DNA of 17,367 nucleotides. It comes from a virus (Duplodnaviria; Heunggongvirae; Uroviricota; Caudoviricetes). Location: the IMG/VR virus record IMGVR_UViG_2606217110_000021; one strand, given 5' to 3'. The notes below the pieces were generated by a model. It did not search any database, was not told the origin of the DNA, and saw only the letters and a program-made list of their open reading frames with translations. Numbering within the stretch: the stretch's first letter is position 1; every line of letters begins with the position of its first letter. The translations under genes and the position numbers were made by a program. Of this stretch, positions 1-17,320 are shown one piece after another.

Positions 1-39
1 GATAACCAGAGCGGAGATAATCGCGGTTACTCTGTTCAT
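1..39 (-). CDS. Rz-like spanin, 5' end only (gene continues beyond window start)
   Basis: ATG at 39-37 overlaps the endolysin stop (ATGA). The first 13 codons translate to [13 protein letters not shown], matching the conserved N-terminus of lambda Rz as I recall it. Confidence 0.55.
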
Positions 40-533
40 TGCTGACCCCACAAACAGATTTCACGCTCAATCTCACGACGAGTCATGAGACCTTTCCATT
101 GCTTACCGCCAGCATATGTCCAGCGACGTAGCTGATCACATGCGCCTTTGATATCGCCCTGGTTTATTTTGCGAAGAAGCGTCGATGTTCTGAAATTGCC
201 AGCACCCACGTTGTAAACGAATGAGTAAAGAGCGCCGCGCGTTGTTTCCGGTATATCGACTTTGATGTACGGGTTAATTTGTCTGGCGACCGTGGCAAGG
301 TCTTTATTCAAGAGTGTTTTGCATTCTGCTTTGGTATACGTTTTACCGAGCATGATGTCTTTTCCTGTATGCCCGTGACATACAGTCCATACACCAACAA
401 TATCTTTGTATGGTATGTAGCTGACACCTTCCAGACCATCGTTACCACTTGGGCCAGTGATTAACACTGATGCTATAGCAATTGCTCCGCCACCAATAGC
501 AGCAGCAACGACTTTTCGTAATGATGGAGGCAT
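36..533 (-). CDS. SAR endolysin (phage 21 R-type lysozyme)
   Basis: 165-aa ORF from the track. N-terminal Gly/Ala-rich weakly hydrophobic segment ([20 protein letters not shown]) typical of a signal-anchor-release domain, followed by a lysozyme-like body. Start overlaps the holin stop (TAATG). Confidence 0.88.
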
Positions 534-748
534 TATTCACCTCTCGCAGCCTTGCGCTTATCTTCTTTAATCTTGAAATAAAGGTTTGTCAGGTACGTCA
601 GCAGGCCAAATACCAGACTACCCAGCACACCGATTGCAGCCCACTGTGACGGAGTTACTCTATCGAGCAACTGTAAAAACCAGTAGCCAGCACTGCCTGC
701 GGAGGTGCCGTAGGCAATGCCTGTTGAAATTTTGTCCATGGATCTCAT
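533..748 (-). CDS. class II holin (pinholin, S21-like) with dual start
   Basis: The ORF track gives 533..805, but the likely start is ATG at 748 (MRSMDK...), preceded by GGAGGTGA at 5-6 nt. A second in-frame ATG at 739 gives the classic two-start antiholin/holin arrangement. 71 aa with two hydrophobic segments and a charged C-terminus. Confidence 0.85.
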
Positions 749-850: not shown

Positions 851-874
851 ATAAAAAGCTCGCCGTAGCGAGCT
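851..874 (-). terminator. intrinsic terminator downstream of lipoprotein gene 1
   Basis: Perfect 7-bp stem AGCTCGC/GCGAGCT with a 4-nt loop. On the minus strand it is followed by TTTTTAT. Confidence 0.5.
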
Positions 875-999
875 AATAAAATGTATTTCTCTGATATTAT
901 GTTTATTTGTATTAGCTCAGACTTGACATCACAGGTTTCGTATATAGAACATCATCAAATCTGTCAGTTTGCTATGAATGAGATATAGTAATTGAAGAG

Positions 1000-1395
1000 C
1001 TAACCTCGCATGTCAAAGCCAGATTTCTGAAAATCTCTGTAGACTTCCGGATTGTTGAAGGCCGGAAATTTGGCTTTATGAGCTGCGGACTTTATCGCTT
1101 CGCAATAGGCTTTATCACCGTTACTGGTAGATATTTTTAACGCCGTGCCATCCTGAGAGAATTCCATATGCAACCTGCATTTTTTCCCTTTCCAGTTATG
1201 CGGCTCATCAAGTTTGGCATTAATTGCAGCTCTGATTCCCCGCGCTTGCGCCCCCCATTCATCCTGATCATCCCAGCGTCCTGAACTGCAACTACCTGTA
1301 GCAGTAGTTTTGTGGCAATCTGAAGGGTGTAAAGGTGTGCATCCCGCAACAAAACCGACCCAAAAAGTCAACATAACGATTTTCTTTAATCCCAC
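1000..1395 (-). CDS. lipoprotein with divergent TolA domain III-like C-terminus
   Basis: GTG start at 1395 preceded by GAGGAG at 6 nt. Signal peptide MGLKKIVMLTFWVGFVAGC with lipobox VAGC. C-terminal region shares the pattern KxC-L-M...GD..C..A....A..PA..PEVY..FQ with the downstream paralogue. Confidence 0.75.
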   Translation of the reverse strand: MGLKKIVMLTFWVGFVAGCTPLHPSDCHKTTATGSCSSGRWDDQDEWGAQARGIRAAINAKLDEPHNWKGKKCRLHMEFSQDGTALKISTSNGDKAYCEAIKSAAHKAKFPAFNNPEVYRDFQKSGFDMRG

Positions 1396-1545
1396 TTCTT
1401 GCTCCTCAATCCATTAAAATCTCAGCAATAGTAGTTGCTACGTCCGCCACTGGCTCAGAGCTGACTATCCGCTAAATTTAGCTCAGTGCCGTAGCTGTGT
1501 CAGAACAAACCTAAGCCGAAACCGTTTATTACAAAACAATAAATA

Positions 1546-1974
1546 TCAGGGTTTAAAATCCAGCACCCCATTTTGAAATACTTTATATACTTCCGGCGAA
1601 GGGGGGGCAGGTATATCAGCATTCTTTATCGCATTCATCGCTTCACGACATAAATCGAGGTCTCCACTTTCTCTTTTAACCTCCAGTAGAAGGCCATTCG
1701 GGGCCATATGCATTCTCAGTGTACACTCTTTTCCTGAATACTTACTCGCATCCCCGAACTGTTTTTCGATGGCGCTCTTGATTTGATGGGCATACAGACG
1801 GATATCCTCACTAACATCAGAAGTACGTTCAGATGAACTCACATACTGTGTCTCTATTGCTTTATCGGAGTAATATGATGTACGGTCATGATAATTTGTC
1901 GATACAGCATCAGTGCACCCGATAATAATCCCACTAATAATCAACGTAAGAATTGATGCGCTACGAAAACCCAT
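1546..1974 (-). CDS. lipoprotein with TolA C-terminal domain (domain III)-like module
   Basis: ATG at 1974 preceded by GAGGA at 5 nt. Lipobox IIGC. The C-terminal ~85 aa (YAHQIKSAIEKQFGDASKYSGKECTLRMHMAPNGLLLEVK...IPAPPSPEVYKVFQNGVLDFKP) closely resembles the C-terminus of E. coli TolA as I recall it, including both cysteines and the terminal LDFKP. Confidence 0.8.
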   Translation of the reverse strand: MGFRSASILTLIISGIIIGCTDAVSTNYHDRTSYYSDKAIETQYVSSSERTSDVSEDIRLYAHQIKSAIEKQFGDASKYSGKECTLRMHMAPNGLLLEVKRESGDLDLCREAMNAIKNADIPAPPSPEVYKVFQNGVLDFKP

Positions 1975-2562
1975 TTTTCCTCACATATGTCATATAGTAA
2001 AGGATTATATATACCGTTGTTTTGGACGCTCAAACAGCGAATCAGATCAAATAAAACGCACATTTGTTAACATTTACACAAAGTCTGCGTGGGATATTCT
2101 GAAAGAATATCCATAATGTGGAGAGAATCTATTGAAGTGCATGGTGCCGGGTGCCTCCCGGTGAACAAAATGTTCGTGATACCTGTCGGCGACAGAAAAG
2201 GTTAATGGTATCACCCCACCGCACAGGGGGATTCACCATGCAGGAGTTTTCTTAGCAAACTCACTGCGCGCCCGGCAACTCCCAACCACATAAAATGCGG
2301 AGTTTGTGGTATTTATGCATATAACTCGCAGGAATTATCTTAAAAAACTGATGTCGATCCGGATTAAAAAGAAGCAGGTCATCATCAGATGACTGGAAAA
2401 AAGGAAAACAAAAAATACTCATCATACAGTTTTGATTGCAGGGATGAGCCTGCTATGCACAATATGCAGAATATAAGCAAGATAAAAATATGCAGGCATA
2501 TTATTTCGGATTTTGTTATTAACACAACCTTTTTAATAATCATTTGGCATACAATAAACCAG

Positions 2563-2592
2563 CCCAAAAAGAACCGCCTAAACAGGCGGTTG
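2563..2592 (-). terminator. intrinsic terminator (minus strand)
   Basis: Stem AACCGCC/GGCGGTT with a 7-nt loop at 2572-2592. On the minus strand it is followed by TCTTTTTGGG. Confidence 0.5.
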
Positions 2593-2911
2593 GTCAATAC
2601 AAAGGATGCTTCGTCTTTATTATAGTAATCTGAGGCGTCGGGTGTCTTGTATCAGACAACATATTGTCCCGCTAAACAGCGAATTACAAACCACCCTGCA
2701 ATGATCTCTCATCTCATTTTATATGAGTTGACGACATCAGGATAACGCATCATCAGCCCCTGCCAAGAAATATCAAAACTCCCGCCAGCAATGTGTTATC
2801 ACAATATTGTAAAAAAAACACAGCACCGAAACTATAACTGGTCTCTGTTATAATTTGGAGCAGAAAGACCAGTTGCCCAACTAGCAGCATTCTCCCCTGC
2901 TTTCCTGACGT

Positions 2912-3018: not shown

Positions 3019-3561
3019 TCAAGCCATTTTCTCAGCAAATGATTCACGCATGGGAATATATAGGGCATACTCAGCAACAGCTAACCAATTAGCAATCCGT
3101 TTTTCGCATGTGCTAAAACACCACTCTGGGTGTGCATCATTTAGCAATTCAGCCATTTTGCGCTTAGTCATCCCCCGCCCTTCATAGCGTTGCCGGAGAA
3201 TGCAAATCAATCCTGGATGCTCTGCCAGCACCTCACTTATGACTCGATCAATACATAACGCCTCTGCATCAGTACAATGCGCCAGCCAGCTCTTTTGCTT
3301 GCCGTTGATCATCTCTCGCAAAAACGCTTCCAGCTCAGCTTTCTCTATTCCCGCTTTTTTCATTCTGCGCAGGGCTTCATTAATGGCTGTTTTCGTCAGT
3401 TTTTTGGATGCCAACAACTGATTGAACATATTCCCTGACCTGCCACCGCCAATATACGACCAGCGCCCCCACATACGTAGTTTTCCCTGAATCCAGACAC
3501 TTTCCAGCGTGGTGAGGCGAAGGTGTTCTCCGCTTTTTCCTGTATTCGTTGGGTAAATCAT
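3019..3561 (-). CDS. putative late-gene antiterminator Q-like protein
   Basis: 180-aa ORF immediately upstream of the lysis region, overlapping the upstream gene by ATGA. Cys-containing C-terminal half. The assignment rests mainly on synteny with lambdoid late-control regions. Confidence 0.6.
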   Translation of the reverse strand: MIYPTNTGKSGEHLRLTTLESVWIQGKLRMWGRWSYIGGGRSGNMFNQLLASKKLTKTAINEALRRMKKAGIEKAELEAFLREMINGKQKSWLAHCTDAEALCIDRVISEVLAEHPGLICILRQRYEGRGMTKRKMAELLNDAHPEWCFSTCEKRIANWLAVAEYALYIPMRESFAEKMA

Positions 3562-4447: not shown

Positions 4448-4727
4448 TTCTCAATCTCTCGATGGCGCAGCGCAGCAGATGCCAGTTGTTCAGGCTGACG
4501 AATAAAGTATAAATAAACTGGCTATGGTGTAAAGCCCCACATAGCATGAACAAACACTACATATCAAATAGCTGGTACAAGGATAGAAATACGACATTTA
4601 TTATTAAAAACGATTAGATAAATTACATTTTAATGTTATGCAAAAGTTCTTTTTTATCATAACATTTCAATAAAAGCATTACAGATGCAATCATCCCGTC
4701 ATCATCAATTATTTAAGGTGGTTAAAC

Positions 4728-4814
4728 ATGGAAAATAACAAGTTCGCACATCTCGCTCCTTTTTTATCCGTAATCCTTTTCGCTTGTTGTTTTATATGGG
4801 CATTATTTTTATAA
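4728..4814 (+). CDS. candidate 28-aa small hydrophobic membrane peptide
   Basis: ATG at 4728 preceded by AAGGTGG at 6 nt. Translation MENNKFAHLAPFLSVILFACCFIWALFL gives a short polar N-terminus followed by one roughly 20-residue hydrophobic stretch. It is below the ORF-track size cut-off. Confidence 0.35.
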   Translation: MENNKFAHLAPFLSVILFACCFIWALFL

Positions 4815-5205
4815 AGTAGCCACATGATAAGTTGCTGGAATCATATTTCCCACTCAAGTCATTAACATTTGATAAGATATATCTAAAAGGACGCCTTTAC
4901 ATTATTTATGTGTATATAATTTATTTATATACACAGTAAAGGTATCCTGGGAAAATATTTATCGTTAAAAAATACATCATAAATAATTAAGCTGAAATTT
5001 CAGAACACAACTAATACACACAATAAGGTTCAGTAACAATAATCTATGTGGACTACATCGAGATTTTTTGATTAAACTTTAATAACTTATTCCTAACACA
5101 CAGAATGCATAAACTAAAAGTAAAACAAATAGTTATACGAAAAACAACCATATTTATTATATCTTCTCCTCTAATCAACATATCAATTATGTGTTTCATA
5201 ACAGC

Positions 5206-5238
5206 TTGACATAACCCTCAAAAACACGCATTTATAAT
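5206..5238 (+). promoter_or_regulatory. putative sigma70 promoter for the DUF1971 gene
   Basis: Consensus TTGACA at 5206-5211 and consensus TATAAT at 5233-5238. The spacer is 21 bp, which is longer than optimal, so this is tentative. Confidence 0.3.
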
Positions 5239-5260
5239 GCATGTTTTTGAGGAGGTGGTT

Positions 5261-5599
5261 ATGACACACAAGAGAATTCCTAAAGATTGGGTAATCAAAC
5301 GCTCAACTCCGTTCTTCACAAAAGAGAACGTACCTTCAGCGTTATTAACACATCATAATACAGCAGCAGGTGTTTTTGGGCAGTTGTGCGTAATGGAAGG
5401 CACTGTAACATATTATGGTTTTACTGATGAGAATGCTACTGAACCGGAGATAAAAGTAGTCATTAATGCTGGCGCTTTTGCAACAAGCCCACCACAATAC
5501 TGGCACCGTGTTGAACTAAGCGATGATGCTCAGTTTAATATTAACTTTTGGGTCGCTCCAGACTTCTCGGGCGAAAAAGTCTATAGCACCAAAAAATAG
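5261..5599 (+). CDS. DUF1971 / YeaR-like protein (TehB N-terminal domain family)
   Basis: The ORF track starts at 5237, but ATG at 5261 has GGAGG at 5 nt. Motifs RSTPFF, VFGQLCVMEGTVTYYGF, INAGAFATSPPQYWHRVE and FNINFWVAPDF match my recollection of E. coli YeaR. Confidence 0.75.
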   Translation: MTHKRIPKDWVIKRSTPFFTKENVPSALLTHHNTAAGVFGQLCVMEGTVTYYGFTDENATEPEIKVVINAGAFATSPPQYWHRVELSDDAQFNINFWVAPDFSGEKVYSTKK

Positions 5600-6269: not shown

Positions 6270-7637
6270 TTATCTTTCTCCAACATCCTCTTCTAAAACA
6301 TGATCTATCTTATCTACAGGAAGATTATCATACTTAGAAAAATCAAAACCATCGGGAAGTTTATTTTTTGCTGCTTTTAATATTCTTATTGAATCGTTAC
6401 CGTTTCTAGAGCGATTTCGCCAATAACATTGATTGTTTTTGTTTGCTCCTTCAAGCAGGGTTAACATTTGCTCGCTTGAGTAATTAGCCAAGTCTTTGTC
6501 AATAAATCTATCAAAATATATATCGGCTCGTTCGAAATCAGCACTATTTATAAAACAAGCAATTCCAAAATCGCGATACTCTGATTCCAAACCTAATTCG
6601 CTGCAAACATTTTTAAAAATTGCCAAATGTTGCTGGTTGAGAAAATTCCCATTATCCCCGTATTTTTTGTAATATTTTTCAGATATTCTTTTTGTTACGC
6701 GATTAATGTGTTCCTCCGGCGATTCAGATATAAAAAAGGCTATTCCAAAATAAGATATGTTATCTTTTATAATAGGCTTTATGAGTTCTTTTACTGAATC
6801 ATCCAAGGCGTTATATATTTCTTTCTCCATGGAAATGAACTCAATTAGTGCCTTAATTGCATCATGGTTATTGGAAATATTGGAGTAATAAGCAGTTTCT
6901 GCTTTAACCGAGTCCACCATGGCTTGCCTGTCTTTTTCAAATATCAGTTTCATAGCTCTGATATTTATCTCTCTATTTTCTAATGGCTTAGCTTCTTCAG
7001 ATCTAAACGAAAACTTCCACAACCCCTTGAATATCTTAACTAATACTTCCTTGTTTAAAGATTTGAAATATTTAACATCTAAGTATTTTTTTAGCGCGTT
7101 ATCGGAAGGGAATAGGTCCTTTACCTTTTCTAGATCTGCAACAAATGTGGAAAGTATTTTTTGAGACATAAATGGCGGCTTGCTTAATATTACTTCTATA
7201 CTATTCCTAATGTCACTTCTAATCATTTCCTGTGTTGGCTCGAATAACGTATCTTCGTCACTTATTACGGGATGGGCAGATAAATGCCTGTGTTTTTGAA
7301 TAAGTAAAACTTTATGGTTTGAAGCAGTGTCTAATAATTGAGTTCTTTCAAAAACTCTTTTAATAAGCTCTTTTTCCCATTTAGGAGAGTAAGGATCATC
7401 GTTTTGTAGTGCTTCAATTTCTAATAATATCTTTTCCGCAACAGCATCGTTATGAACATCTCGCAGTTCTTGGAGCTTAAAAATAATATCACATACAACT
7501 ACTGACCATAGCATCACGGTAGCAGAACGGTAACAACCATTAGCATAGCTCTTATAAACCTCTTCAAAATATTTTCTAGTTCTTCTATCATAAATTTTAC
7601 TCTTCTGAGATTCTAATGAGAATATTCTAACGTCCAT
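6270..7637 (-). CDS. orphan 455-aa protein with N-terminal HEPN-like domain (Rx4H motif); candidate abortive-infection or defence RNase
   Basis: The ORF track gives 6270..7685, but the likely start is ATG at 7637 with GGAGA at 6 nt. Strongly AT-rich. The sequence [13 protein letters not shown] (nt 7272-7292) fits the HEPN Rx4-6H signature. The C-terminal ~320 aa carry no motif I can recognise. Confidence 0.8.
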
Positions 7638-7933
7638 AATTTCTCCATGAAAAATATTTAACTCAAATAATTGAATATGAATCATGTAGTCATAAATACT
7701 TCAAAATTATATTTTTAGCCCACTTAATTCATACAAAACTTCTTTAATAAACTGATTCAGGCCTCATGCATTATGCTTTTAACAAACTATCCTAACCTTC
7801 ATAGTGTAAATCTTGATGTTCAATTTTACAATACGCCAAGTTTCCGTAAATCAATGAATGCGTCGGATTTTACAATAATTTAAAAGAGATGTTGAATAGT
7901 ATCCATGAAGTGTAAGGTTAATATACCCAAAAC

Positions 7934-14396: not shown

Positions 14397-15272
14397 ATGA
14401 GCACAAAACCACTCTTCCTGTTACGGAAAGCGAAAAAATCATCCGGTGAACCTGACGTCGTCCTGTGGGCAAGCAACGATTTTGAATCGACCTGTGCCAC
14501 TCTGGACTACCTGATCGTTAAGTCAGGTAAAAAACTGAGCAGCTATTTTAAAGCTGTTGCCACGAATTTTCCTGTCGTTAATGACCTGCCCGCTGAAGGT
14601 GAGATCGATTTTACCTGGAGTGAACGCTATCAACTCAGCAAAGACTCCATGACATGGGAACTAAAACCGGGAGCAGCACCAGACAACGCTCATTATCAAG
14701 GCAATACCAACGTCAACGGCGAAGACATGACTGAGATTGAGGAGAATATGCTAATCCCAATTTCTGGCCAGGAACTGCCCATTCGTTGGCTTGCTCAACA
14801 CGGCAGCGAAAAACCGGTAACGCACGTTTCACGCGACGGACTCCAGGCATTACACATTGCTCGGGCTGAAGAACTACCGGCTGTTACTGCCCTGGCTGTT
14901 TCCCACAAAACCAGCCTGCTCGACCCGCTGGAAATTCGCGAACTCCACAAACTGGTTCGTGACACTGACAAAGTTTTCCCTAATCCTGGTAATTCAAACC
15001 TGGGACTGATAACTGCTTTTTTCGAAGCATACCTGAACGCTGACTACACCGATCGAGGACTGCTGACAAAAGAGTGGATGAAGGGTAATCGTGTTTCACA
15101 CATCACTCGCACGGCTTCCGGTGCTAATGCTGGCGGCGGAAACCTCACCGATCGCGGCGAAGGTTTCGTACACGATCTGACGTCACTGGCGCGCGACGTA
15201 GCCACTGGCGTACTGGCCCGTTCAATGGATCTGGACATCTATAACCTTCATCTGTCAGCGCCAATGATATAA
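14397..15272 (+). pseudogene. recE: recE (exonuclease VIII) 5' fragment, truncated by IS insertion
   Basis: The ORF begins [46 protein letters not shown], matching the RecE N-terminus as recalled. The reading frame leaves RecE-like sequence after ...DIYNLH (codon at 15249-15251) and terminates 7 codons later inside the IS left end. Confidence 0.65.
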
Positions 15273-15353
15273 GACAGTAATTCACCATTTGGATTGTCCG
15301 CTCCACCCAACATGTTGTTTCCTTAAGGTTCCTACACCACAAAGGGAACACTC

Positions 15354-17320
<1,967 letters not shown>

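Follow-up and report, generated by a model that had tools for sequence, protein, structure and literature searches.

Gene content between the antiterminator and the lysis genes

The stretch of DNA analysed here (17,367 nucleotides, from the IMG/VR virus record IMGVR_UViG_2606217110_000021; hereafter, the window) contains two neighbouring genes, A and B, each encoding a short predicted lipoprotein that carries TolA's C-terminal domain (domain III, hereafter TolAIII). The genome of the C9 strain (NZ_CP010129) is 100% identical to the window over the query region 850-2300, and in that strain the prophage adjoins ttcA and carries trkG. The window covers the early-to-late part of a lambdoid prophage of the Rac type in Escherichia coli.

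All features that bear on the two genes lie on the minus strand, in the order Q-like gene, STnc100, A, B, terminator, P21-type holin and lysozyme (Table 1). Approximately 1 kb of non-coding DNA, inside which the match to STnc100 is found, separates the Q-like gene from A, and a spacer of 150 nt lies between A and B. The location that a preliminary description of this DNA had given for the pair, between Q and the lysis genes, is confirmed by the Q-like gene upstream and the holin and lysozyme genes downstream. Each gene has, as also described there, a Shine-Dalgarno sequence (SD) of its own, GAGGAAA ahead of the ATG of A and GAGGAG 6 nt ahead of the GTG of B. The same description placed a TolA-like C-terminus on the downstream gene; the TolA-like end is real and belongs to A, which is the promoter-proximal and thus the first gene of the two.

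A and B belong to the TolA C-terminal domain family and are not TolA

Both proteins match the Pfam model of the TolA C-terminal domain (PF06519; gathering score 25 bits), A with 82.6 bits (E = 2.4e-23) and B with 54.6 bits (E = 1.3e-14). Against the TolAIII chains of the PDB, A aligns without gaps over residues 334-421 of E. coli TolA with 59% identity (E = 5e-28), and B aligns to residues 341-419 with approximately 30% identity (E = 5e-9). The AlphaFold2 models have a block-mean predicted local distance difference test score of 83-95 for residues 51-142 of A and 72-95 for residues 41-130 of B, with low confidence over the N-terminal 40-50 residues of both proteins; judging from the model, the linker of A (residues 21-53) is probably disordered. 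In Foldseek searches with these predicted structures, A superposed on 2x9a_B with a root-mean-square deviation (rmsd) of 0.6 Å (TM 0.96), and B on 3qdp with an rmsd of 1.1 Å (TM 0.92). The matched TolAIII chains include those from complexes with the filamentous-phage protein g3p and with colicin A, and TonB C-terminal domains were returned as distant matches only. Residues C363 and C388 of TolA align with C84 and C109 of A and with C73 and C98 of B, and the positions equivalent to the TolA disulfide are invariant in a family alignment of 17 sequences. On the combined evidence of profile score, fold and cysteines, A and B are members of the TolA C-terminal domain family. The Pfam comparison and the structural superposition that had been proposed as checks of the TolAIII assignment both bear it out, and the claim that the two disulfide cysteines are kept holds for both proteins.

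A and B are not TolA. They are without the N-terminal transmembrane anchor that contacts TolQR and without the long helical domain II, and they are found outside the tolQRA-tolB-pal operon, with a phage Q-like gene and a holin as neighbours. Matches to models of full-length TolA are confined to the C-terminal 80-97 positions: for NF007065 the scores of 107.8 (A) and 53.7 (B) are both under the cut-off of 213, and for TIGR02794 the score of A (75.6) exceeds the cut-off of 59.45 but covers model positions 265-362 only, with B below it at 47.2. RefSeq names A 'tolA: cell envelope integrity protein TolA', though the C-terminal domain alone is present. Since the anchor and domain II are missing, the gene is not in the tol-pal operon and the equivalog models are matched below cut-off or in part, we consider this name an over-annotation, and one that can mislead pangenome and expression studies. 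In the PHROGs collection, A and B both fall into phrog_5772, to which no function is assigned there.

Lipoprotein signals and start codons

The A protein is laid out as a signal peptide (residues 1-19), a lipobox IIGC with Cys20, a linker (21-53) and the TolAIII domain (54-142). Its N-terminus reads MGFRSASILTLIISGIIIGC followed by TD, with the n-region MGFR and the core SASILTLIISGI. In B, the lipobox VAGC with Cys19 is followed by a linker (20-43) that holds the conserved cysteines C27 and C36, and by a divergent TolAIII domain (44-131); the N-terminus reads MGLKKIVMLTFWVGFVAGC followed by TP, with the n-region MGLKK and the core IVMLTFWVGF. Both N-termini thus have the components of an outer-membrane lipoprotein signal, namely a lipobox of the form [LVI][ASTVI][GAS]C, a positive n-region and a hydrophobic core. 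The lipobox that had been noted on both proteins is part of a canonical signal peptide in each case and is kept in homologues, in 120 of 120 of the B-type and in all 34 of the A-type that have an N-terminus (the remaining 12 of the 46 A-type hits are without one and stand outside this count). At position +2 both proteins have Thr and homologues have Ala, Ser or Thr, with no Asp among them; by the usual sorting rule, which reads sequence only, both are therefore predicted to reach the outer membrane. The sequences and models themselves show domain identity, fold, conserved cysteines and site residues, lipobox signals, purifying selection and distribution; that A and B are lipidated, sit in the outer membrane, are made in the lysogen, bind ligands and alter the phenotype of the cell is inferred.

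The arrangement GGATTGAGG-N6-GTG at the start of B is kept across genera, which supports the GTG start over the shorter one in RefSeq. The RefSeq entry (NZ_CP010129) begins B at an internal ATG, giving 124 amino acids, whereby the charged start of the signal peptide is lost. Spurious N-terminal extensions are common among the homologues in databases.

Ligand-binding sites

Three ligands of TolAIII, the N1 domain of g3p, the N-terminus of TolB and colicin N, each add a strand to strand β3 (residues 412-420), and the substitutions D418P or K420P abolish the interactions with all three and cause a full tol phenotype (PMC4339652, PMC7391070). In addition, g3p contacts the TolA helix 334-349, and the site of colicin A, 375-LLDIKP-380, is on the other edge of the sheet; the affinities are approximately 1 µM for colicin N with TolA and approximately 40 µM for TolA with TolB (PMC4339652, PMC7391070).

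At the helix, the colicin A box and β3, the A protein has DIRLYAHQIKSAIE, LLEVKR and FQNGVLDFKP, respectively, and is identical to E. coli TolA at 14 of the 20 contact-guided positions (α2 helix and β3) that were mutated in the published work. Judged by these residues, A is a close mimic of E. coli TolAIII at both mapped sites. The corresponding segments of B are EWGAQARGIRAAIN, ALKIST and FQKSGFDMRG, with identity at 5 of the 20 positions. B keeps the aspartate (Asp128), and its β3 is free of proline, so strand addition is possible in principle; the range of ligands bound by B is probably other than that of A. The preliminary description regarded B as a divergent version of the same module, which holds at the level of the fold, although B was acquired separately, its binding surfaces have diverged and it need not bind the same ligands.

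Among 51 other clusters of lipoproteins with a TolAIII domain, the information content of β3 (2.60 bits) is close to that in genuine TolA (2.65 bits), and the position of D418 is more conserved than in genuine TolA (3.01 versus 1.51 bits).

Distribution and origin of the two gene types

The A-type group comprises 46 clusters, the named ones being from E. coli and Shigella only. Of the 5426 complete E. coli genomes searched by blastn, which at the settings used has a sensitivity limit of 65-70%, 898 contain an A-type gene. E. coli TolAIII (59%) is closer to A than any other lipoprotein cluster, these being at 53% or less. A recent capture from the host tolA gene was considered and rejected: the search with A matches those 898 genomes only, which means that chromosomal tolA is not detected at the DNA level and that A is not a piece recently taken from that gene. 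An A-variant (81% DNA identity) stands alone in a related prophage (L005), where it comes behind Q, a gene for a methyltransferase and tRNA genes and occupies the position that stx has in Stx phages.

The B-type group is larger, with 370 clusters across Citrobacter, Enterobacter, Klebsiella, Raoultella and Serratia, and in E. coli it is present in 1269 of the 5426 genomes, at 826 chromosomal and 536 plasmid places. The pair of A and B occurs in 770 of these genomes, and nearly all copies of at least 99% identity are paired. Around 600 plasmids, IncI/B/O plasmids and pO157 among them, carry a stand-alone B-type gene with 87-88% DNA identity. In the IncI/B/O plasmid pHUSEC41-1 this gene follows the nikB relaxase gene (of nikA/nikB) by 67 nt on the same strand, placed as if it were part of the oriT operon, and in pO157 it is flanked by toxB on one side and the hok/psiAB leading region on the other (plasmid loci examined: L003, 6004-6435; L097, 27011-30565). 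In Enterobacter, Citrobacter, Serratia and K. oxytoca the B-type gene is a single gene at four unrelated, non-syntenic chromosomal sites (L090, 5001-5450; L093, 5001-5408; L096, 5001-5408; L006, 6001-6435). No mobility gene is evident at these four loci; the Serratia copy adjoins GmrSD and HEPN genes. DNA identity between the copies of Citrobacter and Serratia reaches 95%, and these two have approximately 150 nt of upstream sequence in common with the K. oxytoca copy and, in part, with that of Enterobacter. Non-syntenic sites, high DNA identity and common upstream sequence together point to a one-gene cassette that moves horizontally, and vertical inheritance of the B-type in Enterobacteriaceae was rejected on the first two of these grounds. 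Homology of the window to the plasmid and chromosomal B copies spans 997..1432 only. The phage-borne B has lost the upstream DNA native to the gene, and its transcription must start at some point farther upstream.

The preliminary description took A and B for tandem paralogues. An origin by tandem duplication does not survive the comparison, since the two proteins are 29% identical and belong to different subfamilies with different distributions; the confinement of B homology to 997..1432 and the existence of A-variants without B also count against it.

When 1.84 billion representatives were searched with a profile built from A- and B-type sequences, 578 of them matched at E ≤ 0.001; among the best 150 of them, 94 are no longer than 170 amino acids and 62 have an N-terminal lipobox. 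Judging from these sequences, at least 60 further clusters of short lipoproteins with TolAIII exist across Enterobacterales. Named members of this wider family come from Serratia, Rahnella, Dryocola, Erwinia and Klebsiella, all of them automatically annotated as TolA or as 'colicin import membrane protein'. In a phage genome collection searched by tblastn, 1 of 50,697 records, mEp460_ev081, has such a gene, and a fold search of the viral structures in BFVD with the model gave no resemblance.

No study of phage-, plasmid- or lipoprotein-type TolAIII proteins was found in the full-text literature searched. The domain annotation is already in databases, and within that literature the lipoprotein-TolAIII proteins appear to be undescribed as a widespread mobile family with a likely role. 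A 'tolA' induced in soil has been reported, not resolved to a prophage gene (PMC2948877). The gene EDL933_2012, termed 'TolA-type' and induced 32-fold by ciprofloxacin (PMC11125564), was rejected as a candidate relative, being in RefSeq a tail-fibre gene of CP-933O; the annotation of that prophage shows no gene with a TolA domain in the interval from Q to the holin.

Selection on the domains and on the B linker

Compared with the variant in prophage L005 (81% identical), the A domain has a ratio of non-synonymous to synonymous substitution rates (dN/dS) of 0.27. For mature B, compared with plasmid and chromosomal copies, the ratio is 0.04-0.10 with the linker included. The B linker itself (C19-Q43, 25 residues, 1267-1341; TPLHPSDCHKTTATGSCSSGRWDDQDEW) gives 0-0.08, at saturated dS. 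This stretch, with its C-x8-C spacing (Cys27, Cys36), is near-invariant across genera and at least as constrained as the domain, in a region of low AlphaFold confidence. By these measures the B linker appears too constrained for a passive tether. A likeness of the linker segment SSGRWDDQDEWG to the TolB boxes of colicins was considered; the Trp spacing differs, and we make no claim for it.

A mosaic module in lambdoid late regions

The boundaries of the unit that carries A were compared across 80 prophage loci with A in IMG/VR, a sample of near-identical E. coli copies that informs the mosaic boundaries and not diversity. About half of these loci have the Q module of the window and the other half lose homology at 2016-2303; on the other side, 35 break exactly at 532, the junction of holin and endolysin. 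The segment 532..2262 is common to loci with other Q and endolysin modules, and the upstream break points 2262 and 2303 coincide with the 5' end of STnc100. The break points at 532 and approximately 2262-2303 delimit a unit, composed of STnc100, A, B, the terminator and the holin, that moves between lambdoid backgrounds. Related prophages have other cargo at this place between Q and the holin; in CP-933O, for instance, it is a DUF6645 gene.

Table 1. Features of the Q-to-lysis interval of the window
Feature	Position	Strand	Evidence
Q-like late antiterminator (DUF1133)	3561..3019	-	PF06576 E = 2.5e-107; weak PF06530 (Phage_antitermQ); phrog_753 'anti-termination protein Q-like'
STnc100 (RF02076) structured RNA element, upstream of A	2271..2085	-	Rfam 86.6 bits vs gathering score 47
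Sigma-70 promoter-like site TTGAGC-18-TATAAT, ~30 nt upstream of A start	2033..2004	-	consensus scan, 10/12 matches
Gene A, 142-aa predicted lipoprotein	1974..1546	-	open reading frame, ATG start
Gene B, 131-aa predicted lipoprotein	1395..1000	-	open reading frame, GTG start
Intrinsic terminator-like hairpin + T-run, between B and holin	874..857	-	AGCTCGCTACGGCGAGCT TTTTAT
P21-type (class II) holin	748..533	-	PF04971 E = 4.5e-35; essD in NZ_CP010129 annotation
Phage lysozyme, hydrophobic N-terminus	533..36	-	PF00959 E = 1.8e-45

The promoter-like site ahead of A falls within the conserved mosaic module and could drive A and B independently of Q. With this site before A and the terminator-like hairpin after B the layout appears moron-like, yet the module common to prophages includes the holin. 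Of the terminators that had been described as flanking the pair, the downstream one is clear, whereas the upstream hairpins (2591..2572 and 2393..2378) are more than 400 nt away, beyond STnc100 and the promoter-like site. The lysozyme we take to be a signal-arrest-release endolysin like R of P21.

Two observations concern STnc100. In the L005 prophage there are five copies of the element (1943-2922 and 4682-4894), of which one immediately follows the A-variant and the other four form a tandem array ahead of a nanS-p-like esterase gene, and window positions 2211-2252 are approximately 90% identical to a stretch that follows stx1B in 78 Stx1 phage records. From its placement, STnc100 appears to be a structured element that recurs on either side of cargo genes in lambdoid late regions.

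A possible periplasmic receptor decoy

We tentatively favour, at slightly less than even odds, a reading in which A and B act as non-productive TolAIII decoys, tethered to the outer membrane, against group A colicins and filamentous phages. Each protein would hang a stand-alone TolA domain III from a short linker of 25-33 residues at the outer membrane. There it would catch the TolA-binding epitopes of invaders as they emerge on the periplasmic side of that membrane, before genuine TolA does; the targets would be, in group A colicins and related bacteriocins, their translocation domains and, in filamentous phages, the N1 domain of g3p. With neither the TolA membrane anchor nor the long helical domain there would be no coupling to the TolQR motor, so that a bound ligand would be held unproductively at the outer membrane. 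Such capture would make the lysogen, or the plasmid or chromosomal carrier of a relative, tolerant to Tol-dependent invaders. Because invaders bind at approximately 1 µM and TolB at approximately 40 µM, a decoy in moderate amount could absorb invaders with little interference with Tol-Pal.

Conjugative pili, I pili included, are the primary receptors of TolA-dependent filamentous phages. The F pilus is likewise such a receptor (PMC7391070). The distribution described above, with the pair in 770 of 5426 genomes, some 600 plasmids and stand-alone chromosomal copies, fits a protective accessory gene. It is the ligand-binding domain, the missing TolQR-coupling parts, the predicted tether, the gap in affinity, and the carriage on pilus plasmids and away from lysis genes that make the decoy the best-supported reading. 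The site residues kept by A, the conserved β3 of the family, purifying selection on both genes and the apparently moron-like layout also speak in its favour. The decoy idea put forward in the preliminary description is consistent with these observations.

Several points weigh against it. The promoter call for A is a consensus match, from a scan that is nearly as productive on shuffled sequence (11 sites found against 7.3 expected by chance) and is not evidence of activity. A and B sit within a Q-dependent late operon and travel with the holin, which would be just as fitting for a late function linked to lysis. If a decoy bound the N-terminus of TolB too, a costly tol phenotype would result, and colicins that use TolB, and not TolA directly, would be blocked only indirectly. 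The diverged surfaces of B, together with its constrained linker, hint at a function beyond passive tethering that a decoy does not explain. Finally, no PADLOC model matches A or B at E ≤ 1.

Extended to the whole family, the decoy reading becomes more doubtful, although still conceivable: lipid-anchored TolAIII would then be a widespread and so far unrecognised class of receptor-mimic immunity in Enterobacterales, with dead-end traps on prophages, on IncI/B/O and pO157 plasmids and in single-gene cassettes. The window would hold two such traps with different specificities, A tracking E. coli TolA and B, which has the constrained Cys-loop linker, directed to other ligands or to a Tol-Pal partner.

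The late-operon position invites a different interpretation, which we judge unlikely, in which A and B antagonize Tol-Pal in the late phase and so aid lysis and release. A tethered TolAIII would capture the free N-terminus of TolB in the TolB-Pal complex; TolA would be unable to pull TolB off Pal, Pal would be left without peptidoglycan binding, and the outer membrane would be loosened before pinholin and endolysin fire, complementing the spanins or raising vesiculation. The two genes do lie between the Q-like gene and the holin on one strand, in a module that among prophages runs from 532 to ~2262 and takes in the holin. A keeps the TolB-binding β3 strand, and a blocked TolA-TolB interaction results in a full tol phenotype with a leaky outer membrane (PMC4339652). 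The terminator nevertheless parts B from the holin, a promoter-like site lies ahead of A, the L005 A-variant is several kb from lysis genes, and the affinity of TolA for TolB is weak (~40 µM). Moreover, most family members, on plasmids or alone on chromosomes, are not beside lysis genes, a single phage record in 50,697 has such a protein and BFVD is without a resembling structure. For these last reasons, perturbation of Tol-Pal at lysis, the alternative offered in the preliminary description, is weakened as a role for the family as a whole.

A tethered TolAIII might also tune Tol-Pal without blocking invaders, as an envelope-fitness factor, a role to which we give slightly less credence again. 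It would do so by holding the TolB N-terminus near the outer membrane or by engaging another partner through the constrained B linker, and the outcome would be altered outer-membrane stability, vesicle production or tolerance of stress and serum, as with other lysogenic-conversion lipoproteins. The strong purifying selection on single chromosomal B-type genes, with ~150 nt of upstream sequence common to several genera, would agree with such a role; the low dN/dS of the C-x8-C linker (C19-Q43, 0-0.08) suggests a specific partner, and modulated TolB interactions could regulate vesicle production (review, PMC7391070). Copies that move horizontally between non-syntenic sites, as the 95% DNA identity of Citrobacter and Serratia indicates, are on the other hand more typical of conflict-related accessory genes.

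That A and B are inactive cargo, captured tolA fragments carried passively by the prophage, is hardly credible: A is annotated 'tolA' and is 59% identical to the host domain, and many truncated or frameshifted copies are in databases, but both reading frames are intact, each has an SD and opens with a lipoprotein signal peptide that is a new acquisition, absent from tolA, dN/dS is well below 1 (0.04-0.27), A has no DNA similarity to chromosomal tolA detectable by blastn (898 of 5426 genomes matched), and the architecture recurs in at least 60 sequence clusters.

Relation to known systems

The E. coli TolAIII structures (1TOL, 1S62, 2X9A, 3QDP/3QDR) resemble A and B in fold, family and cysteines, and A in addition keeps β3 and the colicin A box. 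E. coli TolA differs in its transmembrane helix and domain II, in place of which A and B have a signal peptide and a short linker. The TolA gene belongs to the tol-pal operon, whereas genes of the A and B type have a prophage, plasmids and dispersed chromosomal places as their locations.

Tol-dependent colicins and filamentous phages are the textbook exploiters of TolA, and the known defences against them are receptor loss, immunity proteins and g3p-mediated exclusion. In work by Levengood-Freyermuth, Click and Webster (J Bacteriol, 1993), wild-type cells that exported the C-terminal domain of this protein into their periplasm reportedly became colicin-tolerant and leaky. Such a free periplasmic domain competes with native TolA and is, in function, a direct precedent for the decoy reading. 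That construct was laboratory-made, soluble and overproduced; A and B are natural, predicted to be lipid-anchored, carried on mobile elements and present together in two divergent versions. The production of filamentous-phage g3p inside infected cells is said to bring about superinfection exclusion and colicin tolerance (Boeke, Model and Zinder, in 1982). The same interaction of g3p with TolAIII is targeted there in mirror image, with a ligand saturating the real receptor as opposed to a receptor copy soaking up the ligand.

Cor (of phi80, N15 and mEp phages), Llp (of T5) and TraT (of the F plasmid) are likewise small outer-membrane lipoproteins of mobile elements that block the entry of competitors. 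They have no kinship in sequence or fold with A and B, whose Pfam and PHROG hits are only to TolA and phrog_5772, and they bind and mask a host receptor (FhuA, OmpA), whereas A and B would copy a receptor and capture the invader. An account of Llp is given in bioRxiv 10.64898/2026.03.26.714494. In Pseudomonas prophages, FimU-like pilins provide a case in which a homologue of host surface machinery blocks the entry of other phages (PMC12952977); these act on the type IV pilus by incorporation into it and have no homology to A and B.

If the decoy reading is true, a natural, mobile and lipid-anchored copy of a receptor domain would represent a different principle, that of a periplasmic receptor decoy. 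It would bear on the survival of lysogens and plasmid-bearing cells that face colicins and phages specific for pili, on why ~16-23% of complete E. coli genomes carry such genes, and on how far Tol-Pal tolerates competition for TolB.

Other features of the window

Directly after the Q-like gene, at 2909-2936 on the minus strand, there is a hairpin flanked by A-runs and T-runs (AAAAAAACCGCTTAATGCGGTTTTTTTA). Some 300 nt beyond it lies a promoter-like site (2648..2619) and, no more than 30 nt after this, a strong hairpin that resembles a terminator (2591..2572); from their arrangement these may be the late promoter and a Q-dependent terminator.

The other coding content of the window includes YdaT, SieB, RecE, a Ren-like protein and an IS21 insertion. 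An open reading frame of 471 amino acids (6270-7685, minus strand) without a Pfam or PHROG match adjoins a DUF1971 reading frame (5237-5599, plus strand), the two being placed between nin-like genes and the Ren-like and replication genes; this region may be an accessory island. At 14397-17320, a short RecE-like reading frame (291 amino acids) is followed by an istA/istB pair of IS21, an arrangement that suggests an interrupted recombination region of the prophage.

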